Positions 9,395-60,167 of a DNA stretch of 64,000 nucleotides are shown here, piece by piece. Both the position numbers and the translations under genes were made by a program. Source of the stretch: Candidatus Doudnabacteria bacterium. GTDB taxonomy: Bacteria > Patescibacteriota > Doudnabacteria > UBA920 > O2-02-FULL-48-8. Every line of letters starts with the position of its first letter. Positions within the stretch are counted from its first letter, which is position 1. The stretch lies in contig JAIFWV010000002.1 of NCBI GenBank assembly GCA_019659055.1, positions 26,047 to 90,046 on the forward strand, read 5' to 3'. The notes beneath the pieces were generated by a model. It worked only from the letters and a program-made list of their open reading frames with translations, was not told the origin of the DNA and searched no databases.

Positions 9395-9898
9395 TTATCT
9401 TCGCTGGAATCGGGCAAAGTGGGCAAAAGCTTTATTGGCTTCGGCCATGCGGTGCACGTCTTCGCGCTTCTTGATAGCCGCACCCTGCTTGTTGAAGGCT
9501 TCCATAAGTTCGGTGGCCAGTTTTTGGGCCATGGGTTTGCCTTTTTTGCCGCGGGCGGCGTCGATAATCCATTTCATGCCGAGCGCGGTCTTCCGCGGCT
9601 CTTGCACTTCCATAGGCACTTGGTAGTTGGCACCGCCAATACGGCGGCCTTTGACTTCCAGAATCGGACAGACATTGCGTACTGCCTGCTCAAAAATCAT
9701 TTTGCCATCGGTTTTGACCCCGTCCTTGGCTGGCATTTCTTTTTCGATAATATCCAAAGCGCCATAGACGACTTTATTGGCAATAGTTTTCTTGCCGCGT
9801 TCCATGACGTAGTTTATAAACTTCGACAGCTTGACGCTGTTATACTTGTGGTCCGGATCCACCGGATGCTTCTTGTATGATCGTGCTTTTCGTGGCAT
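9395..9898 (-). CDS. rpsG: 30S ribosomal protein S7
   Basis: MPRKARSYKKHPVDPDHKYNS... canonical S7; track N-terminal 15 aa overlap the repeated intercistronic element so start at 9898 preferred. Confidence 0.88.
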   Translation of the reverse strand: MPRKARSYKKHPVDPDHKYNSVKLSKFINYVMERGKKTIANKVVYGALDIIEKEMPAKDGVKTDGKMIFEQAVRNVCPILEVKGRRIGGANYQVPMEVQEPRKTALGMKWIIDAARGKKGKPMAQKLATELMEAFNKQGAAIKKREDVHRMAEANKAFAHFARFQRR

Positions 9899-13019: not shown

Positions 13020-13110
13020 GGGATAGAATTATGAATTTCGAATTATGAATTATGCTTATATTACATAGCCATAATTCCTGATTCCAGATTCCTAATTCGG
13101 ACCCAAGGCA

Positions 13111-13139
13111 TTGACCAAAGCCTGTCCGTATGCTAAACT
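13111..13139 (+). promoter_or_regulatory. promoter for rpmB (TTGACC-17-TAAACT)
   Basis: TTGACCaaagcctgtccgtatgcTAAACT 27 nt upstream of rpmB ATG. Confidence 0.5.
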
Positions 13140-13165
13140 CTTTGGGTACCTTAATTGTAACACAT

Positions 13166-13351
13166 ATGAGAAAATGTACGATCTGCGGCAAAGGCTATAT
13201 GAATGCCATGAGACGATCACACTCGATGCGGGCGACGAAAGTCAAACTTTATCCCAATTTGCAATGGCTTAAGACCGAGCATGGCCGGATAAAAGCCTGT
13301 ACCAAGTGCATCAAGACTCAAGCCAAACGGTTAGCCGCTGTTACCGCATAA
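13166..13351 (+). CDS. rpmB: 50S ribosomal protein L28
   Basis: MRKCTICGKGYMNAMRRSHSMRATKVKLYPNLQ... matches L28 (C.ICGK..GN..SH..TKR..PNL), second Cys pair CTKC; followed by perfect hairpin terminator AAACCTCTTCA-GGAA-TGAAGAGGTTT at 13351-13388. Confidence 0.8.
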   Translation: MRKCTICGKGYMNAMRRSHSMRATKVKLYPNLQWLKTEHGRIKACTKCIKTQAKRLAAVTA

Positions 13352-13398
13352 AAAACCTCTTCAGGAATGAAGAGGTTTTTAAATTTCCGATTTACAAT

Positions 13399-14073
13399 TT
13401 ATTTTGTTACTGCAAATGTGTCTTGCCAGGCTTTTTGGCCTTCTTGATCGGCAAAGAGCGCATACTGGCCGATGCTAAAGAAGAAATATTTGTCGGGGTG
13501 ACTCTTGTCCATCCAGAAATAGCTGGCGCCGTTGCTGGCTGAATAAACCGGCGGGCATTTATCGGCGTTTTGCCAGAAAGGCGCGTTGGGATCGGTACTT
13601 TTGGGATATGCGATCACAGCGACTTCCTGATTCTCGGGGATGACCGGCGCGTCGGCGTCATAGCTTTTGTAATAATCAGCCAAAGTCAAAGGATAGCAAT
13701 CCTTGACTGAATAATTGGCCAGGAATTTCTTTTGGATTGATGCAATGAGAGTATCTTTCGGATCTTTGGTAAAACCCTGTACCCATTGCCCTTGTTCCAT
13801 AGGGTTTGCGGTATAGTAAACATAAATCTTGTCCCCGGCCTCTTTGGCGTCGGTGTCAGTTTTCCCGTCGCCATCCTGATCGGCGCTGTATGTAAACTTC
13901 ACTCCCAAGCTGTCTGAAGTAAAGGTTTTGACCGTGTCTTGATTATTATTGGAGTTGCCAGTGTTGGTTTGGGTGGTCCCCTGATCTTTAGGTTTAATCT
14001 TCACATACGGCAAGAGAAAATAACCTATTGCCAGCAGTACGACTACAAAAATGATCGTTTTGAGGGTTGTCAT
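13399..14073 (-). CDS. hypothetical membrane-anchored/secreted protein (224 aa)
   Basis: N-terminal TM helix, then Gln/Thr/Asn-rich linker and Asp-rich region; no family recognised. Confidence 0.55.
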   Translation of the reverse strand: MTTLKTIIFVVVLLAIGYFLLPYVKIKPKDQGTTQTNTGNSNNNQDTVKTFTSDSLGVKFTYSADQDGDGKTDTDAKEAGDKIYVYYTANPMEQGQWVQGFTKDPKDTLIASIQKKFLANYSVKDCYPLTLADYYKSYDADAPVIPENQEVAVIAYPKSTDPNAPFWQNADKCPPVYSASNGASYFWMDKSHPDKYFFFSIGQYALFADQEGQKAWQDTFAVTK

Positions 14074-14105: not shown

Positions 14106-17100
14106 TCAGAATAACGCCGGCTTGCCTAGACTTGCCACCACCGAGACATAACGGTCCTCGTTGAGGATCTCAGACAGGGAATGCGCGGGCATTGCTCCAT
14201 TGAACAGATACCCTTGCGCGCGATTGCACATATTTTCCCGCAAAAACGCCAGCTGATTTTTGGATTCCACTCCTTCGGCTGTTATTTCCATGTTGAGACT
14301 GCGCCCGAGCGTGATAATTGATTTCGCAATTGCCGAATTTTGCATATCCATGGGGATACCCTTCATGAAAGTTCTCTCGATTTTGAGCATATCCACCGGA
14401 AAATGTTTGATGTAGCGCAAAGACGAATACCCGGTCGAAAAATCATCGAGGCAGAATCTGACTCCCCGTTCGCGCAAGGCATTCATGATGCTTGTAATAT
14501 TGTCTTCATTTTCGGCCAGGATTGATTCTGTAAGTTCGAGTTCCAGAAAACGAGCGTCAAATTTGGATTCTTCGATAGCGCCGATGAGGACATTCTCAAA
14601 ATTCTTCTGCTTGAATTGCCGGGCCGAAAGATTGATAGCCATAATCATTTTGTAGCCGGCATCGTGCCACATCTTCCCCTGCTTCAAGGCTTCTTTGAGT
14701 ATCCATTCGCCAATGGGTTCTATGAGTCCGTTGGCTTCTGCCAATGGGATAAACCGGTCAGGCAAAATCAGCGTCATATCCGGCCTCTGCCAACGGATAA
14801 GCTCTTCTGTCCCAACTATTTTACCTGTGGCGACATCTACTTGCGGCTGGTAAAACAGCACGAACTCCTGGTTTTCCAGAGCGTGTCGAAGCTTGGAATC
14901 CAGAGTTAGCCGTTCGTAGGCCGCCGAATTCATTGTGGTCGTATAGAACTGATAGGTATTGCGGCCGTATTCCTTGGCGCGATAAAGTGCGGCCTCGGCA
15001 TTTCTGAGCAGACTCGAGGCCTCTCTGCCGTCGTATGGATAAAGGCTGATACCAATACTCGGGCTGATAAACAGCTCGTGCTGGTCAAGGTAAAACGCGG
15101 GCCGGAAATCCTCCAAAATTTTATTGGCAAGCTTAGCCGCTTCTTCTTCGGTCTGGATATCGGCCATAAGGATTGCAAATTCATCACCGCCAAGCCGAGC
15201 TAAGACATAATCTTCTTTGACACAGCTGCGTACGCGCAAAGCGACTTCCTGAATCAGGCGATCGCCCAAAGCATGACCCAGAGATTCGTTTATTTGCTTA
15301 AATCGATCGAGATCGAGGAGCATAATTCCCAAATTCTGACCGTTGGCTTCGGCATCCGAAATAGCTTGCGCGAACCGTTCATTGAGGTAAGTCCGATTGG
15401 GCAGATCCGTGAGAGTGTCGTGATGGTACTGATACTGCAGGTTTTCTTCCGCGAGCCGGCGTTCGGTGATATCGCGAAAGTTTACAACCATGGCCCGAAT
15501 ACTCGGGTGGTGCAAAAGATTTGTACCTACTCCCTCAATCCAGCGATAGTTGCCATTGGCATGGCGGCAGCGGTATTGTGCGGTAATCGTCTGGTCCGGC
15601 TTGCGCAAGCTCGTGGCCAGAAGCTCGGCCACCAGCGGGGCGTCGTCGGGGTGCACTATATTTCTAATATTTACTCCGTGCATTTCTTCCGATGTGTATC
15701 CAAGCATACGCTGGACCGGCATGGTCGCAAATGTCAGGACACCGTTGGCATCGAGGAGTGCCACGCCGTCTGAGGTGTTATCGATAATAGCGCGGTACCG
15801 CTCTTCGCTGACCTGAAGTTTCTGTTCCATGAATTTACGCTCACGGATCTCTATCTGAGCTTCCCGATAGAGTAAGGCGTTGTCGATGGCCATGCCGGCG
15901 CGTCGGCCGAGCTCTTCGAAGAATTTAAGATCCTTCTCCTCATAGCGCTTGTTGGACTCTGCCCAGATCAAGGACATGACCCCGAAGACTTTATCGCGTG
16001 CGACCAAAGGCACCATAAGTGCGGACTTAATACCGAGCTTGGACGTGAGTTCATAATGCTCCGGATCGCGCGAACTGGCGCGGAGCATGTCGTCGGTAAT
16101 CTCCTTATAGATTTCAGCTTTTCCGGTGGTGATGATTTTCCAGGTCCCACGCTCCGGATCTTTGTGATTCGGATACTTTCTTGCCAATTCCACAGCAAAT
16201 TTTATTTTTTCCGGGTCCACGTGTTCTACTGCGACTTGCTTTGTGTTTTCGCCGTCAGGAGTGAGAATTTCGATTCCGCACCAATCGGCAAATTTGGGGA
16301 CGGCTAATTTCGCCACTCGCGCCAGTGTTGTCTCAAAATCCAAAGACGATGATAATAATTTCGTAGCTTCGGATAAAAACACGACCCCTTCGTCGGCTTG
16401 TTTGGATTTCGTAATGTCGCGAGCCACGGCCGAGGCACCCACGACTTTGCCGGAATTATTTTTTATTGGCGAGACCGCCACGGATATGTCCAAAATCCGT
16501 CCGTCTTTGGTTTTCCTTTTGGTCTCATAGTGATTAACACCCCTGCCGAGTCGGATCTGCGCCAAAAGCATTCTGGTGTCATCCGGAAAGCCTTCCGGAA
16601 CCAAGACTGAAACATTCTTGCCGAGAATTTCTTGTTCGGTATAGCCATATATCCTTACCGCTCCTTTATTCCAGCTCGTGATGTTGCCTTCTAGATCTTT
16701 GCCCATGATCGCGTCCTCAGACGATTCAACTATAGCTACAAGTTTGAGATTGGCCTCGAGGGCGGTTTTTTGAGGAGTGATGTCGCGCAGATACACAGCA
16801 AGGCCGTCTTTGGCGGGGTACACTGAGGATTCTATCCACTTCGGCATATTTCCCGGTTCAGAAAATTTTTCTTCGTAACGCAGGGATTTATTTTCCAACA
16901 AGGCTTCCTGCAGTTTGGAATAGGTCGCGGTCTGCATTGCGTTTGGAAATTCCTGAAAAATATTTTTTCCCAGAAGCTCGCTCCGGTTCCGCTGTAACAA
17001 CTGTTCGGCTTGGCGGTTGACGTATGTAAAGTTCCAATCTTTATCCAACGCAAAAAAGCCGTCAGTAATACTTTCGAGAATATGCTGGTTCCGGCGATTG

Positions 17101-17600
17101 ATTTTTTCGTATTCAGACTGTATATTTCTCTGCGCTGTGATATCTCGAAAAATACTCACAGCAAATCGGACCTTGCCCTCGCTGTCCCTGATGGGGCGAG
17201 CTTTGATTTCTGACCAAAACTCTGATCCCGTTTGCCGATTTCTGGAAAGTACAATCTTACTCGGTACCTCGAGCCCGTCCAGAGCAGATCTGGCTGGCAG
17301 GTCATTGAAGCTCACCGGGTTCCCGTTCTCATCAAAAATCTCAAACTTGTTTATGGCGTCGGAAACTAAATGATTTATAATCTCGGATTTATTATTGAAA
17401 TCCATAAGGGCGACCGCTGCGGCATTGGCAAAAACCACCCGGCGGCTTTCATCCTGAACGATTACGCCGTCGGCAATAGCCTGAAAAATTTCTTCTAAGT
17501 TTTGTTTCGCGTCGAGTTGCCCGAAAAGCCGCCCTAAAGTTACATCCGAATTTTGCTGATTAGTGTCTGAAATCATACGATAAACCTTCATTGTGGCCAC
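14106..17600 (-). CDS. multi-domain signalling protein: PAS/GAF sensor domains + GGDEF diguanylate cyclase + EAL phosphodiesterase
   Basis: 1164 aa; several PAS-like repeats, GAF-like segment, RLGGDEFAIL (GGDEF), EELIRWQ and downstream EAL-domain conserved blocks. Confidence 0.85.
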   Translation of the reverse strand: MATMKVYRMISDTNQQNSDVTLGRLFGQLDAKQNLEEIFQAIADGVIVQDESRRVVFANAAAVALMDFNNKSEIINHLVSDAINKFEIFDENGNPVSFNDLPARSALDGLEVPSKIVLSRNRQTGSEFWSEIKARPIRDSEGKVRFAVSIFRDITAQRNIQSEYEKINRRNQHILESITDGFFALDKDWNFTYVNRQAEQLLQRNRSELLGKNIFQEFPNAMQTATYSKLQEALLENKSLRYEEKFSEPGNMPKWIESSVYPAKDGLAVYLRDITPQKTALEANLKLVAIVESSEDAIMGKDLEGNITSWNKGAVRIYGYTEQEILGKNVSVLVPEGFPDDTRMLLAQIRLGRGVNHYETKRKTKDGRILDISVAVSPIKNNSGKVVGASAVARDITKSKQADEGVVFLSEATKLLSSSLDFETTLARVAKLAVPKFADWCGIEILTPDGENTKQVAVEHVDPEKIKFAVELARKYPNHKDPERGTWKIITTGKAEIYKEITDDMLRASSRDPEHYELTSKLGIKSALMVPLVARDKVFGVMSLIWAESNKRYEEKDLKFFEELGRRAGMAIDNALLYREAQIEIRERKFMEQKLQVSEERYRAIIDNTSDGVALLDANGVLTFATMPVQRMLGYTSEEMHGVNIRNIVHPDDAPLVAELLATSLRKPDQTITAQYRCRHANGNYRWIEGVGTNLLHHPSIRAMVVNFRDITERRLAEENLQYQYHHDTLTDLPNRTYLNERFAQAISDAEANGQNLGIMLLDLDRFKQINESLGHALGDRLIQEVALRVRSCVKEDYVLARLGGDEFAILMADIQTEEEAAKLANKILEDFRPAFYLDQHELFISPSIGISLYPYDGREASSLLRNAEAALYRAKEYGRNTYQFYTTTMNSAAYERLTLDSKLRHALENQEFVLFYQPQVDVATGKIVGTEELIRWQRPDMTLILPDRFIPLAEANGLIEPIGEWILKEALKQGKMWHDAGYKMIMAINLSARQFKQKNFENVLIGAIEESKFDARFLELELTESILAENEDNITSIMNALRERGVRFCLDDFSTGYSSLRYIKHFPVDMLKIERTFMKGIPMDMQNSAIAKSIITLGRSLNMEITAEGVESKNQLAFLRENMCNRAQGYLFNGAMPAHSLSEILNEDRYVSVVASLGKPALF

Positions 17601-40453: not shown

Positions 40454-41614
40454 TCAAGCCTGGTTTTTGGTCTGATCTCTGTATGTTTTCTGGAGGGTGC
40501 CAAACGATCCGGACTCAATCGATTGCCGAACTCGGACCATGAGGTTTAGATAAAAACGCAGATTATGCATTGTCGCCAGGCGTATCCCGAGCGGCTCTTT
40601 GGATGCAAACAAATGACGCAGGTAGGCGCGGGTAAAATTGGCACAGCAGTAGCAGTTGCAGGTGTTATCAAGCGGCGTGAAGTCTTCTTTGAATTTTTCG
40701 TTATCAATATTTACAGTGACATAGCCTTTGCCTTCACCCGGCTTAAGATTTATATATAGTTTCCCATGACGCGCCTCACGGGTAGGGATGACACAGTCAA
40801 AGCTATCACAGCCAAGTGCTACGGCACCGACAATCTGTGCCGGTGTACCCACCCCTAACAAATGTTTGGGCGCGTCTTCCGGCAAATAAGACTGAGCATA
40901 AGATACACCTTCATACATCTTGTCTTCCGGCTCGCCCACGGCTACGCCGCCAATGGCAAACCCCGGAAAGCCCAAGCTTGAGATTTCTTCTGCCGACTGC
41001 TGACGCAATTTTTTGTAAGTTGATCCTTGGATGATTCCCCAAAGCATCTGCCCGGGGTTCACGGAAGAACCCGCGAGCTTGTTGTGTTCGAGTGCGGCGC
41101 GTTTGGCCCACATGGTCGTACGATCCACTGTATCTTTGACTTGCTGTGCCGTCGCCGGGAATCCCGGAAACTCATCCAGTACCAAAGCAATGTCTGATCC
41201 CAAGTTGAGCTGGATTTGGACTGAGGATTCGGGCGTGAGCGTGTGGGTACTGCCGTCGATATCCGATTGGAACGTAACGCCAAGGTCTGAGACTTTCACC
41301 ATCTTGGCCAAAGAAAAAACCTGGAAGCCGCCCGAATCCGTGAAGATGCTTCCCTTCCAATTCATAAACTTGTGCAAGCCGCCGGCTTTGGCGATGAGAG
41401 CATCGCTCGGCCTCTGCCAAAGATGGTAAGTATTGGCCAGAATCATCTCGGCGCCCCAGAACCGGAGCTCTTCGGCCGCTATGGATTTGATAGCGCCCTT
41501 GGTCCCAATAGGCAAAAACACCGGCGTATGGACATCTCCATGTGCGGTTTTTATAATCCCGGTCCGAGCCTTGGACTCCGGATCCTTTTTTATAATTTGA
41601 AAAATATCGGACAT
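40454..41614 (-). CDS. tgt: queuine tRNA-ribosyltransferase
   Basis: FLPIGTKG, NTYHLWQRP, DCVIPTR, zinc site CxCxxC...H (CNCYCC..H). Confidence 0.9.
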   Translation of the reverse strand: MSDIFQIIKKDPESKARTGIIKTAHGDVHTPVFLPIGTKGAIKSIAAEELRFWGAEMILANTYHLWQRPSDALIAKAGGLHKFMNWKGSIFTDSGGFQVFSLAKMVKVSDLGVTFQSDIDGSTHTLTPESSVQIQLNLGSDIALVLDEFPGFPATAQQVKDTVDRTTMWAKRAALEHNKLAGSSVNPGQMLWGIIQGSTYKKLRQQSAEEISSLGFPGFAIGGVAVGEPEDKMYEGVSYAQSYLPEDAPKHLLGVGTPAQIVGAVALGCDSFDCVIPTREARHGKLYINLKPGEGKGYVTVNIDNEKFKEDFTPLDNTCNCYCCANFTRAYLRHLFASKEPLGIRLATMHNLRFYLNLMVRVRQSIESGSFGTLQKTYRDQTKNQA

Positions 41615-41744
41615 AATTTGTTCTGTGACTTGTTTGGCATCAAAAAAGTAGCTAAAAAGAAATAGATCCTGAAACAAGTTCAGGATGACTTACTGATGAG
41701 TATAGCTTAGCAAATTTGCAGATCTTATGCTAATATGACGCAGT

Positions 41745-44087
41745 ATGAAAAATGAAAACTCTCCTACAATCCTAGCGGTTTTTGGCGCAACCGGCGATCT
41801 CGTATCGCGCAAACTTTTGCCGGCCATCTATCATCTTTACCGAAACAAACAGCTCCCGAACAAATTTAAAGTCATAGGTGTTGCCCGCCGTCCGTTTTCC
41901 GACGACGAATTTCGCAAGCTTATGAAAAAAGCGCTGGTGGCCAAAATCCGCCGGCCCGAGAAACTCGACGAATTTCTCAAACTCTTCAGCTATCATCAGG
42001 GCCAGTTTGATCAAGACGCAACATACACCTCGCTGAAAAAAGTATTAAATGCTCAGGATACCAAATGGAAAACTCGGGCCAATAAACTTTTTTACCTGGC
42101 CACACCCCCTAATTTCTATGATAATCTCCTACACAAACTTGCCGGCACGGGACTAGCCAAGCAAACCGGAAAAACCTGGGCGCGGATCATTGTCGAGAAA
42201 CCTTTTGGCAAAGACCTAGACCACGCCGAACATCTCGATGTGCTTTTGGGCAAACTATTCGACGAATCGCAAGTCTATCGCATCGACCATTACCTGGCCA
42301 AAGAAGTTTTGCAAAACATCATGGCGTTTCGGTTTGCCAACAATCTTCTGGAAGACGTCTGGAACCGCAAGTACGTGGAAAAGATTGAAATCAAACTCCT
42401 GGAAGAAATCGATGTCGAAGGCCGCGGGGAATTCTATGACGGCGTGGGCGCTCTGCTCGATGTCGGCCAAAACCACCTCCTCCAGGAATTGGCGCTCGTG
42501 ACCATGGATAAACCCGAAAGTTTCCGCACGGTCGATATCCATGCCCGCCGCGCCGAAATCCTGAAAAATCTGCGGCTCATGAATGCTGAGACTGTAAAGA
42601 GTGATACTATGCGCGCACAATACACAGGTTACACGCGGGAACCAGGGGTGGCCCGAAATTCCAACACGGAAACTTATTTCAAGCTTGAGACTTATATCGA
42701 CAACCCTCGCTGGCAAGATGTCCCGATCTACCTGGAAGCGGGAAAAAAATTCCCGGCCAACGAAAAATCAGTCACGGTGACATTCAAGCATCCCGAGCCA
42801 TGCTTGTGCCCACCCGGTGTACATTACCAAAACCGAGTTATCTTCCGCATCCAGCCCACCCCGGGAATCGAAATCGAATTTTGGAGCAAGAAACCCAACT
42901 CCTCGGGCATGGAACTCGAGAAACGCCTTTTGCACTTCAACTACGAATCCGACCCAAGCACGAGATATTTGGCCGAATACGCCAAGCTCATCTCCGACAG
43001 TCTCGCCGGAGATCAGACTTTGTTTGTCTCAAGCCGCGAAGCGATTTCATCGTGGAGATTTATAGACCCGATCGTTAAGGCGTGGAAAGCCAAACTCACT
43101 CCGTTACTCACGTATAAAAAAGATTTTAAAATCCTGTCCGAATTTGATCGACGAATCCGGCCTCAGCGGCCATTTACGAAATTGGCCATGGTCGGCTTGG
43201 GTAAGATGGGCAAGAGCCTCTCGCTGCAACTTTTGGAAAAAGGATTTTCGCTTGTAGCGGCCAATACTCATTCCAAAGACGCGGTGAGCGAACTCTCGCG
43301 CCACTCAAACTTCCACGCTTACCCAACCGACCAGCAAATGCTGGCCAGTCTCCCTAAGCCCCGGCTGGTCTGGCTCATGGTCCCGCACGCGCAAGTCGAT
43401 GAAGTTTTATTTGGCAAAGACGGGTTGGCCAAAATCCTCGACCGCGGCGATATCGTCATCGACTCGGGGAATTCATATTTCAAAGACACTATACGCCGGG
43501 GACGCCTGCTTACGCGCCGCGGCATCGAATTTATGGACCTCGGCTTTTCTGGTGGACCGGGAGGCGCGCGCCGCGGCGGCTGTCTCATGATCGGCGGCAA
43601 AAAATCTCTCTACCAAAAACTCGAGCATGTCTTTGCGAGTATGGCGGCTGACGGCGCCTATAATTATTTCGGCAAGATCGGCGCCGGCCATTTCGTGAAG
43701 ATGGTCCACAACGGCATCGAATACGGCATGATGCAATCGCTGGCGGAAGGCTTTGGCATCCTCAAAGCGTCTCCGTTTCGCCTCAATCTCATCGACGTTG
43801 CGGATATCTATAACCACGGCAGTGTTATAGAGTCGCGGCTCGTGGGCTGGCTTAAGGATGGATTTGAGATGCGCGGCCAAAACCTTAAGGGCATTACCGG
43901 GGTGGTGGGCTACACCGGCGAAGGCGAATGGACTGCCAAGACTGCCAAACAGCTCCGCGTGCCGGCCAAAATTATCGAAGAATCATTTCTCTTCCGGGTG
44001 AAATCAAAAAAGACACAAAGTTTCGTGAGTAAACTTGTGTCATCTATGCGCGAACAATTCGGAGGCCACAGTGTGCGCTCGGTTTGA
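41745..44087 (+). CDS. zwf: bifunctional fusion: glucose-6-phosphate dehydrogenase (N-terminal ~480 aa) + 6-phosphogluconate dehydrogenase, short NAD(P)-binding form (C-terminal ~290 aa)
   Basis: single 780-aa ORF; G6PD motifs VFGATGDL, RIDHYLAKE, EKPFG; after WRFIDPIVKAW a ~30-aa linker then 6PGDH motifs MVGLGKMG, GxAGxGHFVKMVHNGIEYGMMQ. Confidence 0.8.
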   Translation: MKNENSPTILAVFGATGDLVSRKLLPAIYHLYRNKQLPNKFKVIGVARRPFSDDEFRKLMKKALVAKIRRPEKLDEFLKLFSYHQGQFDQDATYTSLKKVLNAQDTKWKTRANKLFYLATPPNFYDNLLHKLAGTGLAKQTGKTWARIIVEKPFGKDLDHAEHLDVLLGKLFDESQVYRIDHYLAKEVLQNIMAFRFANNLLEDVWNRKYVEKIEIKLLEEIDVEGRGEFYDGVGALLDVGQNHLLQELALVTMDKPESFRTVDIHARRAEILKNLRLMNAETVKSDTMRAQYTGYTREPGVARNSNTETYFKLETYIDNPRWQDVPIYLEAGKKFPANEKSVTVTFKHPEPCLCPPGVHYQNRVIFRIQPTPGIEIEFWSKKPNSSGMELEKRLLHFNYESDPSTRYLAEYAKLISDSLAGDQTLFVSSREAISSWRFIDPIVKAWKAKLTPLLTYKKDFKILSEFDRRIRPQRPFTKLAMVGLGKMGKSLSLQLLEKGFSLVAANTHSKDAVSELSRHSNFHAYPTDQQMLASLPKPRLVWLMVPHAQVDEVLFGKDGLAKILDRGDIVIDSGNSYFKDTIRRGRLLTRRGIEFMDLGFSGGPGGARRGGCLMIGGKKSLYQKLEHVFASMAADGAYNYFGKIGAGHFVKMVHNGIEYGMMQSLAEGFGILKASPFRLNLIDVADIYNHGSVIESRLVGWLKDGFEMRGQNLKGITGVVGYTGEGEWTAKTAKQLRVPAKIIEESFLFRVKSKKTQSFVSKLVSSMREQFGGHSVRSV

Positions 44088-44104: not shown

Positions 44105-44371
44105 TTATTTCTGCAGCTGTTGGGCTTTTGTTTGAGCCGAGCGATAATTTACCCCCGTCCCGGAATCTAAATTTGCCTCGCCTTGAAGCGTGGCGTTATA
44201 TTCGTTTTGTTGTTCTGCGGCGTCTTTGGCGGCCTGGATCTGATCCTGGCCCTGCTCAATTTGGTTTTGCTTATTGCCGTCCCGTCCGACATAAAACGCG
44301 CCATAAACAATTACAGCAATAATAGCTAGAGTAATAATGAACCCTATAATCCCAAATCCGTTTTTATTCAT
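44105..44371 (-). CDS. small membrane protein (88 aa)
   Basis: N-terminal TM helix, Gln-rich tail. Confidence 0.45.
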   Translation of the reverse strand: MNKNGFGIIGFIITLAIIAVIVYGAFYVGRDGNKQNQIEQGQDQIQAAKDAAEQQNEYNATLQGEANLDSGTGVNYRSAQTKAQQLQK

Positions 44372-44472: not shown

Positions 44473-45183
44473 CTACAGCCTTTCGAGAGCTTCCTCGAAG
44501 CGATCGCGAGGCGCATCGTAATTTTTTAATTTTCTGCGCTTGCCCATAAAGAAAGCAATGCAGACAAACGATACGGCGAGCGCAAAATCGAATGCCGTGT
44601 CGCCGTTGCCGAACACGGCTCGAGCAAGACCCCAAACGACCTTCCCGCCATCCAAGACAAAAATCGGAAGGATGTTCAATTTGCCGAGCCGGTAATTCAT
44701 GTACGCCACGAATTGAATCGTGTTCTCGGTCACCGATTCGTCGAGCAGTGACACCACACCCATCGCAATGAGTGAAATGGCAAAGTTCGTAAACGGTCCA
44801 GCCAGGGACACGGCGATCATCGCTAGTGGTCTCCCCTGAACGTAGGCGTCAGGCAAACTCACGTAAGCACCCCACCACGAGATGCCGGCACCAGTGATCT
44901 GGTAGTTGAAGTAGTACGCTGTGATCGCGTGTCCGATTTCGTGGGCAGCGATGGAAATCACCATGAGTACCGCGCCAACCAGCGAACCCGTCACCAGCGC
45001 CGAAGTGCTGCAGTTGAGTTTTCGGCGCAGGGAATAAAGCTGGCGGTGGATATACGAATGGGCGCTCATCGTAAGCAGCACTGCCATCGCCACGGTCCAG
45101 AAGCTGATGTACACCGGGATTCCAAACACCTGCGTCCCGTACCCAAACGATGCGAGAACTTCTCCCATCTGCATGAGATTCAT
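44473..45183 (-). CDS. second peptidase-M50/site-2-protease-like membrane metalloprotease (G+C-rich, SD-bearing)
   Basis: AAHEIGHAITA HExxH in TM helix, NILPIFVLDGGKV motif; SD TAGGAGGAG before ATG. Confidence 0.7.
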   Translation of the reverse strand: MNLMQMGEVLASFGYGTQVFGIPVYISFWTVAMAVLLTMSAHSYIHRQLYSLRRKLNCSTSALVTGSLVGAVLMVISIAAHEIGHAITAYYFNYQITGAGISWWGAYVSLPDAYVQGRPLAMIAVSLAGPFTNFAISLIAMGVVSLLDESVTENTIQFVAYMNYRLGKLNILPIFVLDGGKVVWGLARAVFGNGDTAFDFALAVSFVCIAFFMGKRRKLKNYDAPRDRFEEALERL

Positions 45184-52593: not shown

Positions 52594-53187
52594 CTAATCT
52601 AGTTTATCGGCGAAGACAACGAGCCTCTGCGTATAACTCTGGGCGGATTTATCCCAAATACCTTGGCAGGTAATCAGGTTCAAATGCGCTATGCCATCCG
52701 CCGAAGTAAATATTTCTGTAGCGTCTGCATCCGGCGCATAAATCCGGGATTCCCTCACCGCAAATGTGACGACTCCGCCTTGTCCGTCGTGGACCCGAAT
52801 CTGGTCGCCAGGTTTGAGATTATGTAAATTGGCAAACACGGCTGTGGTATTATTTTCTCCATCGACATGGCCGTCGATGACTGCACTACCAATTTCCCCT
52901 GGTCGCGGCCCCAAGCTATACCACGCGGTATCGTCTTGGTCGGCAGGTACATCCATGGACCCGTTTGGTAATATCCCTACTCGTTCGACTGCCGCATCCA
53001 CGCCGATGCTTGGAATGACAATTCGCGCTGGAGCAAGAAATTTCTCTTTGGCCGCGGCATCACTCCATGAGTAGTTAGTGGTAAACTTGATCTTGATGTT
53101 TGGCAAAAACAGCCAGCCGGTTACGGCAATTGCCGCAACCAAAAACCCAAATACTATCAAGCGGGTCTGCAAAAGTCTATTTCTCAC
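52594..53187 (-). CDS. sortase-family transpeptidase
   Basis: N-terminal TM anchor, catalytic His region (IDGHVDG), TLxTC active-site motif (LNLITCQG), conserved Arg downstream. Confidence 0.75.
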   Translation of the reverse strand: MRNRLLQTRLIVFGFLVAAIAVTGWLFLPNIKIKFTTNYSWSDAAAKEKFLAPARIVIPSIGVDAAVERVGILPNGSMDVPADQDDTAWYSLGPRPGEIGSAVIDGHVDGENNTTAVFANLHNLKPGDQIRVHDGQGGVVTFAVRESRIYAPDADATEIFTSADGIAHLNLITCQGIWDKSAQSYTQRLVVFADKLD

Positions 53188-54085
53188 TCGGTACTAGTTT
53201 GCGTGTTTTTATAAGGGCAAAGAGGATGATCGCACCCGTAATTGCAAGCATAGGCAATTGCCATGGGAGTGTGACAACTTGTGTCCCCAATCCTGTGCTG
53301 GGCAAAGTCGGGACCGGTGTAACTGCAGGACTTACTGGGGCCGGTGTAGGCGTTGGAGTTGGAGTTGGTGACGGGGTCGGAGTCACAGCTACCGCACATG
53401 TCGGCCGATTGATGGTATTGGTATCCAGAGTTACCGCGCCGTTGCGGGCCAGTAGTCGGCCGTTGATAAGCGCACCGTTTGTGGCGGTAACGGAAGTCAG
53501 AGCCAAGACACTGCCGGAAAAATTCGAATTAGTACCAAGGGTCGCGGACGAACCGACCTGCCAGAAAACATTGCAGGCTTGCGCGCCATTCACCAGATTT
53601 ACGGAACTCCCGGAAGCTGTGGTCAGAGACGACCCGGACTGGAATACGAATACCGAGTTTGGATTGCCTTGTCCATCCAAAGTCAGAGCGCCGGTAAGTC
53701 CAAGCGACGAAGCAGAATTATATACGCCCGAAACCAGAGTTTGTCCACCCAGATCTCCGGAAACCGTGACAGTGACCGATTGGCCAGCGGCGGCGTTGTA
53801 GGCAGTCGAAAGATCAACTTCGGCTTGAGCAGCGGCGCTATCGGTAATGTGCTGTGTACCGTTAATAGTGCCTGGTGGGAATCCCGTCACCGAAGTTCCT
53901 GGAGACAAACCCAAGTCACCATTTACGATAGTCGAACCTGTGTTTGTGATTGTCGTGGCCCCAAGAACGGCAAAGCTATTGCTCGATCCAAGGTTCAGCG
54001 CCGTGGCGGCCATAGCCTGTCCGGTATTGCCGAATGCAAACGTAAATGCAACCAAAACCATCAAAACCTTGATCATCTTTTTCAT
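53177..54085 (-). CDS. LPXTG-anchored surface protein with ice-binding-like (DUF3494) beta-solenoid domain
   Basis: signal peptide, SNSFAVLGATTITNTG..DLGLSPG..TGFPPG and NVFWQVGSSATLG signature of DUF3494, PT-repeat linker, LPSTG + TM + basic tail; overlaps sortase gene by 11 nt. Confidence 0.7.
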   Translation of the reverse strand: MKKMIKVLMVLVAFTFAFGNTGQAMAATALNLGSSNSFAVLGATTITNTGSTIVNGDLGLSPGTSVTGFPPGTINGTQHITDSAAAQAEVDLSTAYNAAAGQSVTVTVSGDLGGQTLVSGVYNSASSLGLTGALTLDGQGNPNSVFVFQSGSSLTTASGSSVNLVNGAQACNVFWQVGSSATLGTNSNFSGSVLALTSVTATNGALINGRLLARNGAVTLDTNTINRPTCAVAVTPTPSPTPTPTPTPAPVSPAVTPVPTLPSTGLGTQVVTLPWQLPMLAITGAIILFALIKTRKLVPSEK

Positions 54086-54313
54086 ATCCATGCTTTTCTT
54101 TCGTTAATATGCTCTATAAAAAGCAAAAAACCGGACAATTCCGGTCAAAACATAGAATGGGTTCTTGAATGGATTTGGAAGCAGTTTGCTAAATGTATAT
54201 TCATTATACTCCTAGTCGCGATTAAAAGCAAATCGATTAGGTGATCCCAATGGATGAGAGTATAATGAATACAGTCAAAGGTCTAGGAAATGTATTAAAT
54301 AAGGAAAATTTTT

Positions 54314-56280: not shown

Positions 56281-58743
56281 TTATTTAAGCAATTCATATC
56301 GGAAAAGTTTAGGCTGTATTGCAGTTTCATAATATTTGGCTACTGTTGTCCTTAAACCAATTATTGCCGTATTTAACTGAGGATTATCGTAAATTATTTC
56401 ATCGTTTTCATTTTTATGATATGTATTAAGTTCGGTATCAATTTGGTAAGTACCATATTTATATTCTGGGTTATATCCTTTTGTTCTTTTAGCTTTCTTT
56501 AGAACATCTTTAAACAAGTATAATAATTCCTCTTCTTCTTTTGTGAGTTTATAAGCTTTCAAATAGTTACTCGCTATCGTTGAGCTATCAAAACAGAGTT
56601 CGTTCCTATAAAATCTCCCATCGCTCCCATGAAAGCTTCGACAATGATTACGTCGACTTAAACAGGTGAATATAAAACAGCTTTTCAGAAAATCCTTATC
56701 CTTCAGGTAACGATCTTTTCCATCAGCGGTAGTAAAAAATAAATCACGTTCAAACCAATTTTTTTGTGGATAAAGTTTGGCGGCAAAAAGCGGCAATTTA
56801 TCTATGAAATTGTCAGTGCGTAAATAGAAGCCATTTTTTCTAGCATTTAATGTTGTCCTCACCAATGCTTGCTTTGGAGCTCCCAATGTATAGCCAACCA
56901 AATATTCGTACCCTAGAATATTTTCATTGAATACTTTTTCAGTACTTGTTGCCCCCGTTCTCTCTGCTTCATTTCCACTACTATCACAGTAGATACCATC
57001 TAGGCTGTCATCATTGAATTTCCGCTTATCAAAGTAAAACTCGTTGAAAGTGGTGTGAACTTTTTTCACCAAGATATCTTTTACAAATAAGGTACGATCA
57101 TCTTCTTGTTGCGGAGTATTTTTCGTGTCTATGTCAAAAGCTTTAAGCGACAGCTCTTCTTTACTTTCTGGCAAATTTTGCCACAAAATACAACTAATTG
57201 CAGACTTAGAAGCATGGAAATGTTCTCGATTAAATAAAAACCCTTCTATAAATTGATGTTCCCCCAGGCCGTGTGATTTCCAATATTTTATCGGGGAGAA
57301 AAGAATGAAAGCATCATGGGGTTTTGTCAAATAATATTTCCAACCAGACCAGATAAATAAATTGGCAATATCCTTAGACGGGATCATGCCTTTTATTTTC
57401 GAAGTAAAAAACTTTTTAAATTCGTTCGCAATAAAACTATCTTTTTTAACATCTCGAGTTAAGCCTTCCAGTCTAACCTTATCAGCACTCGTATCACTAT
57501 ATGGTGGATTTTCATATAAAATAATATTTGTCTTTGGATCTTTGATATACCTTAAAAGTGTTGCGATACTGTCACTGTATTCTGAAGTCATTCCTAGTGA
57601 CTTTTGGCCTGTGACAAATTCTAAACTGAGTGCATCGCCTCCTTCCACCAAAGCTTTTCTACTGCTAACTTCTTGTGGTGGTGGAATAATTAGTTTGACT
57701 CGATCTCCAATTCTTTCATTCAAAACTACCCACTCTTTCAATTCATAAGTATTTACTATTGTATGGGATAACTCATTATCAAAAATGTAGTCGCGTATTT
57801 TTATTGTTGTCTCGTATTTCTTTATTTCCTTAAGAGTGATTTCGTTTATTTTCTTACTTGCCCTTCCAAGAATAATATCAATACCAATACCTGTACTAGA
57901 AATGTACTCTTTCTGAAAGCTTTCATCGATATATTTACTAAGCTCACCAATTGTGATATCGTCTACTTTTTTATCAGTCAGAAACTCTTCTAGATTTCCG
58001 GTTCCTGCACAACGATCAAGAATTATATAATCATGGCCTGTGGGTATCCTTTTAATAGCTTTTCGAACTAATCCCGTAGCTTTGAGACAATATGCAGGTG
58101 GAGTATAAAAAGCTCCAAGTTCTTTTTTATGTTGCTTATCATTAAGCAAGTCCATAATATATTTAAAATCTGGCTCATCTCCTTTCCATGGATATATAAA
58201 ATGTACGAAATGCTTAGGCTCACGGAATTCCTTAAACAGTTTAATTTTGCTGGCATCCGGATTTTCGCGATAAAATCTGTTAGCCCAGCCAACAACGTCG
58301 AATACATCAATGTGAACTTTCGTATAATCTTCTCTCTCTAAAATTTCTGTAATTCTTCTTAGCCCTAATAATTTACTGTAATCAATCTTTTCGGGTTGAA
58401 TTTTAGTGTTAAATTCAGTATTATTTCTGCTAGCTGCCCCAGCGTATATTTTTTCTATATCTTTTAAAAAGTCACCTGAACTAAAAAGGTAAGCATTCTC
58501 CTCATTTAGCGCGACCAACAATATTTGAGCTGGGATAGGATCACCCTTTATTCTGCGGTGACTTAAATATTTGATGGCTTGAAGCAGGACTCTATTAATA
58601 TCTGGTATAGTTAATTTAAACTCAAAAAGAGTACCTTTATATACACCATCGGTATTATTTGTAAGCTCGATATCGGTACTAATTTTCAAATCAGTAAAAA
58701 ATCTGACTTGGCCTTCACGTTCTGATAAGAATTTATTACTCAT
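56281..58743 (-). CDS. MmeI-like Type IIL/IIG restriction-modification enzyme (N-terminal PD-ExK nuclease + gamma-class N6-adenine DNA methyltransferase + C-terminal target-recognition region)
   Basis: 820 aa in A+T-rich DNA; D-x8-EFK near N-terminus; motif X GAFYTPPAY, motif I ILDRCAGTGN, motif IV ENPPYSD in gamma-class order. Confidence 0.65.
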   Translation of the reverse strand: MSNKFLSEREGQVRFFTDLKISTDIELTNNTDGVYKGTLFEFKLTIPDINRVLLQAIKYLSHRRIKGDPIPAQILLVALNEENAYLFSSGDFLKDIEKIYAGAASRNNTEFNTKIQPEKIDYSKLLGLRRITEILEREDYTKVHIDVFDVVGWANRFYRENPDASKIKLFKEFREPKHFVHFIYPWKGDEPDFKYIMDLLNDKQHKKELGAFYTPPAYCLKATGLVRKAIKRIPTGHDYIILDRCAGTGNLEEFLTDKKVDDITIGELSKYIDESFQKEYISSTGIGIDIILGRASKKINEITLKEIKKYETTIKIRDYIFDNELSHTIVNTYELKEWVVLNERIGDRVKLIIPPPQEVSSRKALVEGGDALSLEFVTGQKSLGMTSEYSDSIATLLRYIKDPKTNIILYENPPYSDTSADKVRLEGLTRDVKKDSFIANEFKKFFTSKIKGMIPSKDIANLFIWSGWKYYLTKPHDAFILFSPIKYWKSHGLGEHQFIEGFLFNREHFHASKSAISCILWQNLPESKEELSLKAFDIDTKNTPQQEDDRTLFVKDILVKKVHTTFNEFYFDKRKFNDDSLDGIYCDSSGNEAERTGATSTEKVFNENILGYEYLVGYTLGAPKQALVRTTLNARKNGFYLRTDNFIDKLPLFAAKLYPQKNWFERDLFFTTADGKDRYLKDKDFLKSCFIFTCLSRRNHCRSFHGSDGRFYRNELCFDSSTIASNYLKAYKLTKEEEELLYLFKDVLKKAKRTKGYNPEYKYGTYQIDTELNTYHKNENDEIIYDNPQLNTAIIGLRTTVAKYYETAIQPKLFRYELLK

Positions 58744-58900
58744 AGGATCTCATATTATTTAAAAGATATTCGGTATCCTAAGCATACCAAAAAGCCGCCT
58801 TTTTGGCGACTTCAGTGATTACGTAATAAAAAAGTACCTCAATTATTACACAGCTTGCTTCAAAAAGCAAAAAGTTCGTACTCCCTCTCAATGAACCAAA

Positions 58901-59362
58901 TTAAGCTTTATTTTTAGCTTCTTGGATAATAATATTTACTAAGTCATTCAGTAATATATATCCGTAAATAAAATTTAATAAAACTATTCCTGAGAATGGT
59001 AGTATATAATAATTTGATAATAATAATTCATTGCTTAATGTCTGTTTTATAAAAAAATTAATTAATAATAAATACAAAACAGTTATTAATATCAAATCAA
59101 GACCAAATTTAAACCTTTTCATCAAAGTGTGGAGTAAAGTCAGGCTTGGATTCTTGTTATCAATAGTTTTATACAGGTCAGATACATATTTTGACGTTAC
59201 AAAAATCGCTAGACTGGTAATATAAAACCCAAAAACAATCGAAAGAAAGATTATTACATTATCAACCACCTCTGTGTGTAACTTCATACCGCCATAAGTC
59301 CAGTATTGTAACAAACACATTATTAATAAAAATAGAACTACATAGATTTTCTTTTTATTCAT
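58901..59362 (-). CDS. hypothetical 4-TM membrane protein (153 aa), A+T-rich
   Basis: four hydrophobic helices; start overlaps upstream gene stop by 8 nt. Confidence 0.5.
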   Translation of the reverse strand: MNKKKIYVVLFLLIMCLLQYWTYGGMKLHTEVVDNVIIFLSIVFGFYITSLAIFVTSKYVSDLYKTIDNKNPSLTLLHTLMKRFKFGLDLILITVLYLLLINFFIKQTLSNELLLSNYYILPFSGIVLLNFIYGYILLNDLVNIIIQEAKNKA

Positions 59363-60167
59363 GAATTTTTTTGATTAATTCGGAGACCAATTCTTTATTA
59401 ATAAATTTTCCATTCTTTCTATTCATTGGTGCCAGCAATGTTATTTTACTAATTACTTCCTGAGTATTGAAAATGCTTTCAAAATCCTCTGAGGTGCGAC
59501 CTATCACCGTAATATTTTTATATTCTGTTTTATTTTTTATAATATCTTTCACTTTTTCATATAATTGTTTTCCGATCTTCTTCTTGTTTTTATAAACCAA
59601 CTTAATAATAGCCTCTGTCGCACCAAATCCAAAAATATCTTCCCTTAGTCTTGCAGGCAACCCTATGCTAGCGGAATTCAGTAAATCCGGTTCTACCGTA
59701 AAGCATATTTCTTTTATAGATTCTATCTTATCAATAAATTCGCGTTGAGCTATCAGAGGCTTGACGGCAATTTCCTTTTTTATTTTATCCTCAAGCCAGT
59801 TTATAAGAAAGCCCTTTTTTCTGAGATCTGAAATATAAATTCTAGAGGTCAGTAAGTCGACGAGCACATAAAATTGCTCATTTAATTCAACCTTGTCAAT
59901 TGATCTGGGATTGAGGCTCTCTTTGAGCTTAGAATCAATAACTTTCTCAGAATAAGGAAACTTATTACCTTCCTCAAAACAAAGTGCAATAAACCGTTCT
60001 GGAATATACTCCTTTTCAATTTTTTTAATATTGAGAAGATCTTCTCCGATTGTTTGCTTTTCAAAATTGGCTTCGTCGATAGCGGCAAAGTTAGCCAATT
60101 CGGGCTTTTTGCCACCGATTATTAGTTGAAAAATGGAAAATTGTATCTCTTTTAGATGCTTCTTCAT
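59355..60167 (-). CDS. hypothetical protein (270 aa), A+T-rich, no recognisable domain
   Basis: long ORF in ~30% GC DNA, Lys/Glu/Ile-rich; preceded by hairpin AAAGACGGC..GCCGTCTTT. Confidence 0.5.
   Translation of the reverse strand: MKKHLKEIQFSIFQLIIGGKKPELANFAAIDEANFEKQTIGEDLLNIKKIEKEYIPERFIALCFEEGNKFPYSEKVIDSKLKESLNPRSIDKVELNEQFYVLVDLLTSRIYISDLRKKGFLINWLEDKIKKEIAVKPLIAQREFIDKIESIKEICFTVEPDLLNSASIGLPARLREDIFGFGATEAIIKLVYKNKKKIGKQLYEKVKDIIKNKTEYKNITVIGRTSEDFESIFNTQEVISKITLLAPMNRKNGKFINKELVSELIKKIHE

Follow-up and report, generated by a model that had tools for sequence, protein, structure and literature searches.

A conserved, probably bifunctional fusion of glucose-6-phosphate dehydrogenase and 6-phosphogluconate dehydrogenase centred on CPR bacteria

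Introduction

The enzyme glucose-6-phosphate dehydrogenase (G6PD) shares a chain with another oxidative pentose phosphate pathway (PPP) enzyme in Plasmodium GluPho, in the G6PD::6PGL proteins of Giardia and Trichomonas, and in metazoan H6PD. The partner in these fusions is 6-phosphogluconolactonase (6PGL, PF01182), and channelling of the lactone is plausible in them because the lactonase performs the consecutive step. Protein 54663 of the diatom Phaeodactylum tricornutum instead joins G6PD to 6-phosphogluconate dehydrogenase (6PGDH) (Kroth et al. 2008, PMC2173943; Stover et al. 2011, PMC3148214). It has been described as two in-frame genes 39 nt apart, the first without a stop codon; the published accounts confine it to a single species, and those who described it questioned its legitimacy themselves (PMC2173943; PMC3148214). 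A 2011 search of nr turned up no further example of a G6PDH/6PGDH fusion (PMC3148214). Our full-text literature search found no paper on a bacterial G6PD-6PGDH fusion; PMC11021460 was rejected as a report of one, “G6PDH-6PGDH” there being only the name of a cascade. The oxidative PPP has been described as patchy in CPR/Patescibacteria (PMC7304191).

The protein described here is encoded in a 64,000-nt stretch of Candidatus Doudnabacteria DNA (the window). An initial annotation had placed the first and third oxidative-PPP steps on one polypeptide, which holds at the level of sequence, both halves scoring above curated cut-offs; its statement that known G6PD fusions pair with 6PGL overlooked the diatom protein. 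By description, the diatom protein has the same two enzymes and the same two steps in one reading frame without a stop. Like the G6PD::6PGL fusions, the window protein joins G6PD to another oxidative-PPP enzyme, but it lacks PF01182 and its two activities are non-consecutive.

Results

Gene and reading frame

The fusion gene is a single unbroken ORF, as first annotated, and every motif quoted for it is present in the translation (Table 1). Across DNA 43020-43320 only one frame stays open; the other two reach stops within ~55 codons or fewer. The gene stands alone on the + strand between two - strand neighbours, tgt (40454-41677) and a small ORF (44105-44371), and its neighbours in the window include no PPP genes. 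A promoter/terminator scan around it gave counts close to the shuffle expectation. The protein is 100% identical to an NCBI entry titled [quoted passage not shown] (P0001).

Table 1. Features of the fusion gene, in window coordinates
Feature	Positions	Strand	Residues	Basis or remark
Whole fusion gene	41745..44087	+	780 codons + TGA stop	ATG start; ORF listing
G6PD N-terminal NADP-binding domain (G6PD_N)	41778..42317	+	12-191	PF00479, 4.9e-60
GATGDL, R48, EKPFG	within 41778..42317	+	14-19, 48, 151-155	Motifs of the G6PD N-terminal domain
RIDHYLAKE motif	42279..42305	+	179-187	Alignment to 1h93
G6PD C-terminal beta+alpha (catalytic/dimerisation) domain (G6PD_C)	42321..43118	+	193-458	PF02781, 2.5e-78
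Predicted catalytic base of G6PD half	42474..42476	+	H244	Aligns with L. mesenteroides H240
Junction/linker KDFKILSEFDRRIRPQRPFT	43119..43178	+	459-478	
6PGDH Rossmann NAD(P)-binding domain (NAD_binding_2)	43179..43652	+	479-636	PF03446, 1.2e-35
GLGKMG, N576, S602-G-G substrate loop	within 43179..43652	+	484-489, 576, 602-604	Motifs of the 6PGDH Rossmann domain
Cofactor-discriminating loop VAANTHSKD	43254..43280	+	504-512	6PGDH half
6PGDH catalytic motif GAGHFVKMVHNGIEYGMMQ	43680..43736	+	646-664	
6PGDH helical C-terminal domain, short form	43686..44084	+	648-780	Single copy of helical repeat
C-terminal substrate-binding tail R-E-Q-F-G-G-H	44049..44069	+	769-775	DNA read directly

G6PD half

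Judged by profiles and alignments, residues 7-458 are a complete G6PD, in agreement with the initial annotation: the NCBIfam model TIGR00871 (zwf) matches them from profile position 2 to 463 of 486 with 475.2 bits (curated equivalog cut-off, 400.6 bits), both Pfam domains are found, and the catalytic residues are in place. Within the N-terminal domain, G14, T16, G17 and L19 are kept in 118 of 120 aligned fusion proteins, R48 in 115, and E151, K152, P153 and G155 in all. R48, followed directly by R49, sits where the L. mesenteroides enzyme has R46 and the human one R72, a determinant of NADP+ preference. In the alignment to 1h93, D181, H182 and K186 fall opposite D177, H178 and K182 of L. mesenteroides; together with Y183 they are identical throughout the family (120/120), as are Q242, N243 and the predicted base H244. 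PDB entries titled “inactive mutant H240->N” and “active site mutant D177->N” confirm the roles of the reference residues. An invariant Y457 closes the C-terminal domain, which was aligned to 1dpg/1h93 and 9emm.

Canonical bacterial G6PDs (L. mesenteroides 1dpg, Synechocystis 9emm) are 33–40% identical to the fusion over residues 6-459, and their catalytic residues all recur in it. The H6PD structure 8em2 is also among the sequence matches of this half. An AlphaFold model of the full protein has a mean pLDDT of 88.8, with both halves well folded, and its G6PD half superposes on 1dpg with a TM-score of 0.86 (0.82–0.86 across canonical G6PDs). A Foldseek search of the PDB returned no solved chain spanning both halves.

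Junction

Canonical G6PDs end in ~23 further residues, including a G-S-x-G-P segment, whereas the fusion has a divergent linker leading into the Rossmann fold of 6PGDH. First described as ~30 residues long, this linker is indeed there, but it measures ~20 residues by domain boundaries (459-478) and 36 between the conserved W447 and G484. The latter spacing varies from 27 to 46 residues across 120 members, always with the frame kept. Mean pairwise identity among these members is 16.5% at the junction, compared to 54% in the G6PD half and 57.5% in the 6PGDH half. AlphaFold predicts a short helix at 462-470, with pLDDT of 74–80 over the junction.

A hydrophilic, poorly conserved linker modelled with only moderate confidence might be cleaved, or the 6PGDH half might be started internally, so that the fusion would be merely a translational device yielding two ordinary separate enzymes; post-translational cleavage has been proposed for certain fusion proteins of diatoms (PMC2173943), and Met482 offers the window protein a possible internal start. 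We think this distinctly unlikely, given that the junction holds no conserved cleavage motif, that Met482 is not conserved (I/V/L/F/Y in 104 of 120 members), and that relatives with separate genes show genetic separation to be easy if it were preferred. When the true start and Met482 were inspected for Shine-Dalgarno motifs, well-supported genes of the window were also found to lack clear ones.

6PGDH half

Judged, like the G6PD half, by profiles and alignments, residues 479-778 are a complete short-form 6PGDH, as had been proposed. The match to NCBIfam TIGR00872 (gnd_rel) runs end to end, from position 2 to 296 of 299, at 302.5 bits, above the curated cut-off of 297.2 by only 5 bits; NF007161 matches the same residues with 315.8 bits (cut-off, 271). 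There is a single helical repeat, and the Pfam 6PGD match (PF00393, residues 648-759) covers only profile positions 1-118 of 290.

Identical in all 120 fusion proteins are G484, G486, M488 and G489, then N576, S602, G603 and G604, then K652, H655, N656 and E659 of GAGHFVKMVHNGIEYGMMQ, which aligns with solved 6PGDHs of both short and long form, and finally R769, F772, G773 and H775 of the tail. Y660 and R751 are likewise invariant. R769 and H775 are equivalent to R446 and H452 of the long-form enzyme. We take K652, H655, N656 and E659 to be the counterparts of sheep K183, H186, N187 and E190, and N576, S602, R769 and H775 those of sheep N102, S128, R446 and H452; these sheep residues comprise the catalytic Lys/Glu pair and the residues that bind 6-phosphogluconate. 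Solved short-form 6PGDHs (~300–350 aa; 6xeq/10gw, 8ihe Gnd2, 6vpb, 4e21) align over their full length with E values of 1e-52 to 1e-55 and have the same catalytic motif, GHFVKMVHNGIEYGMMQ, and the same R..FGGH tail. They differ in being stand-alone proteins and in the Asp that follows beta-2; NAD+ dependence is described for 8ihe, and the name of TIGR00872 likewise gives NAD+ as cofactor.

The fusion family consensus at the cofactor loop is G-Y-N-R-T/S-P, of the NADP type (“NRT”), with Asp in 19 of 120 members. The window protein reads N507-T-H-S-K there, neither the Asp of the NAD-type solved short forms nor the Arg of most fusions; the lack of the Arg, along with a one-residue insertion, is shared by its closest relatives (P0002, P0003, P0007). 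This departure from the N-R-T/S consensus puts the cofactor preference of the 6PGDH half, and conceivably its efficiency, in doubt.

The unusual loop, the narrow pass at TIGR00872, weak matches to tartronate-semialdehyde and 3-hydroxyisobutyrate reductase models, and the Glu or variable residue found in the family at the position of sheep K260 could all be read as signs that the C-terminal half is a module for regulation or for binding NAD(P), or a beta-hydroxyacid dehydrogenase that acts on a different substrate, rather than a working 6PGDH. Yet gnd_rel matches from end to end and two curated cut-offs are exceeded, the other dehydrogenase models reach only 46–74 bits against cut-offs of 290–450, and the Lys at the K260 position is missing from the solved short-form 6PGDHs too. 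With N576, S602, K652, H655, N656, E659, Y660, R751, R769 and H775, which are specific to 6-phosphogluconate, all invariant, we consider a non-catalytic C-terminal half, raised initially as a possible refutation in the form of an NAD-binding domain only, to be very unlikely and reject it on sequence evidence.

Family and distribution

We found the same architecture in at least 130 independently assembled proteins, with identity down to 36%, which answers the call in the initial annotation for a search for homologous fusions. The best 120 database matches are 735–828 aa long, have the same four domains at 48–72% identity, and come from many assemblies and CPR lineages; a search of 1.84 billion 50%-identity representatives added 12 more clusters of full-length fusions, the most distant at 36% identity. 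In both halves, the catalytic and substrate residues are the same in every one of the 120, and pairwise distances of the two halves co-vary (r = 0.60, Mantel 0/999). The family has its centre in CPR/Patescibacteria and a few copies elsewhere; L004, L005 and L006 are from non-CPR hosts.

An artificial read-through, in which a sequencing or assembly error had joined zwf and gnd genes that are separate in the organism, might be suspected from the A6 run at ~43113-43118 just upstream of the junction, the ATG (Met482) close to where the 6PGDH half begins and the split zwf->gnd pairs of relatives L007 and L008, but it can be dismissed as extremely improbable: at least 130 independent sequences share the architecture, the junction is in frame in all 120 aligned proteins despite its 27–46-residue spacing, both alternative frames there run into stops, the KDFKILSEF right after the A-run is conserved in frame in the closest relatives, which come from independent assemblies (P0002 KDFKILKAF, P0003 KNTKILQMF, P0004 KNNKILSEF), and position 482 is Met in just 16 of 120 members and I/V/L/F/Y in the other 104.

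The initial suggestion that such an architecture would be unusual is overstated. In CPR/Patescibacteria the fusion is common, and public databases have contained it for years under no other name than “glucose-6-phosphate dehydrogenase” or “hypothetical protein”. Because automated annotation gives these proteins simply the former name, reconstructions of CPR/Patescibacteria metabolism that use product names or best single matches are likely to score the 6PGDH step as missing; recognising the fusion fills that gap with one gene.

Origin of the fusion

Operons of the type gnd(short)->zwf, which are widespread (Acidobacteriota, Anaerolineae, Actinomycetota, Pseudomonas and others), also link the two protein families, but in reverse order and unfused. 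This order was seen in 66 of 80 species-representative loci among the GTDB-genome matches listed, none of the 66 fused. Loci of Acidobacteriota, Pseudomonas, Anaerolineae and others, where query residues 7-778 matched within ~2.4 kb, looked like fusions but proved to be such two-gene operons. ORF and tblastn frame analysis left L006 and L009 as the only true fusions among the 80 listed loci.

A different arrangement occurs in L007, from a Ca. Moraniibacteriota genome, where unfused zwf and gnd lie in the same frame, reading YASGSTPEEIITHNVRKH, stop, RIK, stop, MTLGYIGLGKMG. Order and frame are those of the fusion, and the spacing is nearly so: the conserved Tyr and the Rossmann Gly lie 28 codons apart, vs 27 in the window protein. 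Unlike the fusion, L007 has two stop codons between the genes. In a neighbour-joining (NJ) tree of the G6PD half, drawn with no bootstrap, the L007 G6PD groups with the fusion clade. Most likely, the fusion arose through loss of the stop codon(s) between such an adjacent, in-frame zwf->gnd pair. The linker would then be the old G6PD C-terminal tail, and by sequence it is essentially that, diverged.

The same tree (again, no bootstrap) mixes fusions and stand-alone G6PDs of ~450–480 aa in one poorly resolved clade, apart from the G6PDs of gnd->zwf operons. The history may comprise one origin with later fissions, or several fusions. The diatom protein follows the same stop-loss logic; it is eukaryotic, unlike the bacterial fusion, and no eukaryote-named entry is among the listed best matches to the window protein. 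Compared by description only, the two are almost certainly independent events.

With L007, we see a Rosetta-stone fusion caught beside its unfused state, and the family shows that joining G6PD to 6PGDH is a solution that recurs and is stable, rather than a doubtful diatom gene model.

Proposed function and the lactone step

The fusion is genuine and conserved, and on sequence grounds probably a bifunctional G6PD-6PGDH enzyme. The N-terminal 458 residues would oxidise glucose-6-phosphate, yielding 6-phosphoglucono-delta-lactone, probably with reduction of NADP+. This lactone would be released from the enzyme and hydrolysed either spontaneously or by an unlinked hydrolase, and the C-terminal 302 residues would then oxidatively decarboxylate 6-phosphogluconate to ribulose-5-phosphate and CO2, using a second NAD(P)+. 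Direct substrate channelling between the halves is unlikely, since the two active sites have no intermediate in common. The benefit would likely lie in obligatory 1:1 co-expression, and in inheritance or transfer of both dehydrogenases as one gene in small genomes, in which the oxidative branch occurs patchily. We regard this explanation as a whole (both dehydrogenase steps on one chain, a stop-loss origin, a co-expression benefit) as highly likely.

Nothing found here accounts for step 2, because scans of 50 window ORFs and of the genes beside the fusion in five related loci turned up no lactonase. Neither PF01182 nor PF10282 matched any of 50 window ORFs (ten genes on each side and 30 others), in line with the initial remark that no 6PGL is adjacent, and PF01182 is absent from the 780-aa protein; the same library detects PF01182 in P0242, our positive control. 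It is conceivable, though improbable, that the fusion is a self-sufficient oxidative-PPP module in which a dedicated lactonase is dispensable. 6PGDH would then be tethered to G6PD, possibly in a mixed assembly of G6PD dimers and 6PGDH oligomers, and the delta-lactone would be hydrolysed at or near the enzyme, captured before it could turn into the dead-end gamma-lactone or gluconoylate proteins. In that case, pgl would be systematically missing from fusion-carrying genomes.

The fusion reveals no new enzyme chemistry. It would be a compact single-gene module for regenerating NAD(P)H, with two reducing equivalents per glucose-6-phosphate and possible biotechnological use.

Neighbouring genes vary among the related loci. 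Transketolase and PGI lie downstream of the fusion in L002, and transketolase overlaps its 3' end in L004. A faint lactonase-like beta-propeller adjoins the fusion in one relative.

Fusion ORF and domain architecture

The initial annotation had read a single ORF joining glucose-6-phosphate dehydrogenase (G6PD, zwf) to a short-form 6-phosphogluconate dehydrogenase (6PGDH, gnd). Every motif that it quoted is present in one open frame, the fusion is real, and the interpretation was correct. The N-terminal part exceeds the curated NCBIfam zwf equivalog cut-off (TIGR00871, 475.2 bits versus 400.6), matching profile positions 2–463 of 486. The C-terminal half in turn clears the cut-offs of two NCBIfam models for short 6-phosphogluconate dehydrogenase, TIGR00872 gnd_rel (302.5 versus 297.2) and NF007161 (315.8 versus 271), with its short-6PGDH profile match covering positions 2–296 of 299.

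Features of the window, the fusion protein and compared loci
Feature	Position	Strand	Description
Fusion ORF	41745-44087	+	ATG start, 780 codons, TGA stop, uninterrupted
G6PD_N	residues 12-191		Pfam
G6PD_C	residues 193-458		Pfam
NAD_binding_2	residues 479-636		Pfam
6PGD C-terminal domain	residues 648-759		Pfam
L007 zwf/gnd junction	7371-7444, JALVQA010000001.1		reads ...YASGSTPEEIITHNVRKH, stop, RIK, stop, MTLGYIGLGKMG
L005 beta-propeller gene	12391-14031, DASXUP010000008.1		546 aa
L002 reverse-transcriptase ORF	8835-9812		RVT_1
Ribosomal L4 gene	954-1595		
GDPD ORF	1592-2272	-	glycerophosphodiester phosphodiesterase
Ribosomal L3 gene	2273-2893		
M50-family gene	12384-13019	-	211 aa
Multi-PAS/GAF/GGDEF/EAL gene	14106-17600	-	1164 aa
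M50-family gene	44473-45183	-	236 aa
Ice-binding-like and adjoining sortase genes	52594-54091	-	ice-binding-like domain PF11999, 1.7e-66
Low-GC stretch	56281-60167	-	GC 0.32-0.35, ~0.48 elsewhere
ORF in low-GC stretch	56281-58743		820 aa
Neighbouring ORFs in low-GC stretch	58901-59362, 59355-60167		

A widespread family

A sequencing error producing artificial read-through is excluded for practical purposes, because the frame is kept family-wide and residues past the only nearby homopolymer are conserved. The junction (43020–43320) is open in one frame, and the other two frames meet stops. The stretch that directly follows the homopolymer, KDFKILSEF, is retained in frame by the nearest relatives. 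NCBI lists a protein of 100% identity under the name 'MAG: glucose-6-phosphate dehydrogenase [Candidatus Doudnabacteria bacterium]', which places the window in a CPR/Patescibacteria genome. The best 120 matches among 5.8 billion proteins, derived from many independent assemblies, all have 735–828 aa and the same four domains, at 48–72% identity. Their labels include Doudna-, Kaiser-, Sacchari-, Levy-, Sung-, Gottesman- and Roizmanbacteria and Parcubacteria; two are labelled Actinobacteria/Coriobacteriia. An exhaustive HMMER search of 1.84 billion 50%-identity representatives added 12 full-length fusion clusters, with identity down to 36%, and several fragments; stand-alone G6PDs of ~450–480 aa rank below them. 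Database product names for the family are only 'glucose-6-phosphate dehydrogenase' or 'hypothetical protein'.

In a MAFFT alignment the reading frame across the junction was kept in all 120 fusions, with 27–46 residues from invariant W447 to invariant G484. Identity was 16.5% in the junction, versus 54% in the G6PD half and 57.5% in the 6PGDH half. Across the family, pairwise distances in one half track those in the other (r = 0.60, Mantel 0/999), in keeping with a long history of joint inheritance.

Catalytic residues and structure

By alignment and residue conservation, each half looks CATALYTICALLY competent. Residues 6–459, the G6PD half, align with the Synechocystis (9emm) and L. mesenteroides (1dpg/1h93) enzymes; counted along the alignment, L. 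mesenteroides D177, H178, K182 and H240 are D181, H182, K186 and H244 here. Two PDB titles, 'active site mutant D177->N' and 'inactive mutant H240->N', confirm the functions of D177 and H240. These four residues and the EKPxG motif are invariant (120/120 fusions), and R48, the NADP-discriminating arginine position, is kept in 115/120. Over its whole length, the 6PGDH half aligns with the solved short forms 6xeq/10gw, 8ihe, 6vpb and 4e21. Sheep 6PGDH N102, S128, K183, H186, N187, E190, R446 and H452 correspond to N576, S602, K652, H655, N656, E659, R769 and H775, all invariant in the 120.

The sequence NRT is a signature of NADP-dependent 6PGDH, and the family consensus of the cofactor loop is G-Y-N-R-T/S-P. 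Nineteen of the 120 carry Asp in the loop, like the solved short forms, of which 8ihe is described as NAD+-dependent. In the window protein and its relatives from Doudnabacteria the loop reads N-T-H-S-K and contains a one-residue insertion; NADP+ would probably still be usable, since the loop has no acidic residue and His and Lys are available.

Both halves folded confidently in an AlphaFold2 model (58-sequence alignment, mean pLDDT 88.8, pTM 0.72), and the G6PD half superposed on 1dpg with a TM of 0.86. Structure comparison against the PDB found no solved chain spanning both halves.

Junction and origin of the fusion

The zwf profile match ends 23 positions short of the profile end, and the L. 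mesenteroides alignment ends 23 residues before that protein's C-terminus; the 6PGDH Rossmann strand starts 20 residues past the end of the profile match. Given this agreement in length, the 'linker' is best read as a diverged natural G6PD C-terminal tail. The AlphaFold2 model predicts a short helix at residues 462–470.

A likely path to the fusion is visible in extant genomes. Scanning GTDB species representatives, we found the unfused state in a Ca. Moraniibacteriota genome (L007): 12 nt separate zwf from gnd, both genes share a frame, and the conserved Tyr precedes the Rossmann Gly by 28 codons (27 in the window protein). Losing both stops of such a pair would recreate the fusion. A similar pair in a Mycobacterium-labelled MAG (L008) has one in-frame stop between the genes. 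Close stand-alone G6PDs occur with an adjoining convergent short gnd (L087) and with no gnd nearby (L086).

The scan was pattern-limited and is not a census; its counts apply to the 80 loci listed. Among these, 66 (L013, L016 and L074 included) are gnd(short)→zwf operons, opposite in order to the fusion and none of them fused. This arrangement is very widespread, occurring in Acidobacteriota, Anaerolineae, Actinomycetota, Pseudomonas and others, even archaeal-labelled MAGs. The only true fusions among the 80 were L006 (labelled Gammaproteobacteria) and L009 (Paceibacteria, truncated gene). Vibrionaceae have zwf-pgl-gnd(long). In a rough NJ tree built from the G6PD halves, one poorly resolved clade unites the fusions with the L007 split gene and many stand-alone G6PDs, and is compatible with a single origin followed by fissions or with several fusions; G6PDs of the gnd→zwf operons fall outside it.

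Genomic context and the lactonase step

The fusion is a lone plus-strand gene within a long minus-strand housekeeping run, with LeuRS, TatD, MetRS, a class II aminoacyl-tRNA synthetase and tgt upstream, and an M50 peptidase, an LCAT-like protein, a sortase and an ice-binding-like protein downstream. As first noted, no 6-phosphogluconolactonase (6PGL) is adjacent: the 50 window ORFs scanned held neither a PF01182 nor a beta-propeller PF10282 domain, nor any other pentose phosphate pathway enzyme. In related loci, genes for transketolase and PGI come shortly after the fusion (L002, Parcubacteria), or its end overlaps the transketolase start (L004), neighbours that support a role in the pathway. 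No lactonase adjoins the fusion in L001, L002 or L004. In a Coriobacteriia MAG (L005), an immediately adjacent convergent YNCE-type beta-propeller gene, with only a faint PF10282 'Lactonase' signal, is a possible candidate for that genome's missing lactonase. Gene contents of L004 and L005 are unlike those of CPR genomes, and therefore the fusion has spread outside CPR too. The oxidative pathway in CPR is patchy, with low phylogenetic depth, in an account that does not mention the fusion (Jaffe et al., PMC7304191). In L002 (Parcubacteria Gr01-1014_31), a reverse-transcriptase ORF lies directly upstream of the fusion, and downstream, beyond the tkt-pgi pair, come four tandem ORFs with PEP-utilizers domains.

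G6PD catalyses step 1 and 6PGDH step 3 of the pathway. Classical channelling is not expected, because the delta-lactone released at the first site is not a 6PGDH substrate, unless hydrolysis takes place on or near the enzyme. The lactone hydrolyses spontaneously but inefficiently (summarised in PMC3148214). We infer that the protein supplies both activities, and it is very probably a plain bifunctional enzyme whose advantage in reduced genomes would be to express both dehydrogenases in fixed stoichiometry and to pass them on, by inheritance or transfer, as one gene; the lactone would hydrolyse spontaneously or through an unlinked enzyme. The most novel alternative, a fusion that would render a dedicated lactonase unnecessary, is improbable.

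Comparison with known fusions

In most known G6PD fusions the partner is 6PGL (Plasmodium, Giardia, Trichomonas, H6PD); unlike these, the window protein lacks the defining PF01182 domain. The initial annotation's view that G6PD fusions pair with 6PGL holds for most, but a G6PDH/6PGDH fusion had already been described in Phaeodactylum tricornutum, as cytosolic protein 54663 (Kroth et al. 2008, PMC2173943), a diatom precedent for the bacterial, short-6PGDH fusion. There, two in-frame genes lie 39 nt apart with no stop; the gene model was doubted, and nr then held no other example (Stover et al. 2011, PMC3148214). We found no description of a bacterial G6PD-6PGDH family in full-text searches, which reach few subscription journals, so absence is not proof. 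The novelty is limited: both enzymes are ordinary, the fusion is a simple stop-loss event, the family is abundant in public data, and a diatom precedent exists. Nearest representatives in the HMMER search included P0242 (768 aa), with G6PD and a full 6PGL (PF01182) domain, and P0263 (652 aa), in which a partial 6PGL precedes G6PD; the C-terminal extension of P0135 (868 aa), ~420 aa long, had no Pfam match.

Other features of the window

The two small M50-family (site-2 protease-like) membrane proteins look paralogous, one gene lying ~400 nt downstream of the fusion. None of the three ORFs of the low-GC stretch had a Pfam match; the stretch may be a horizontally acquired island or encode a fast-evolving surface protein. 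The ice-binding-like gene adjoins and overlaps the sortase gene, which suggests a sortase-anchored surface protein. The multi-PAS/GAF/GGDEF/EAL protein is a large c-di-GMP signalling protein, here in a reduced CPR (Doudnabacteria) genome, and the GDPD ORF unusually interrupts the S10 ribosomal operon between its L3 and L4 genes.
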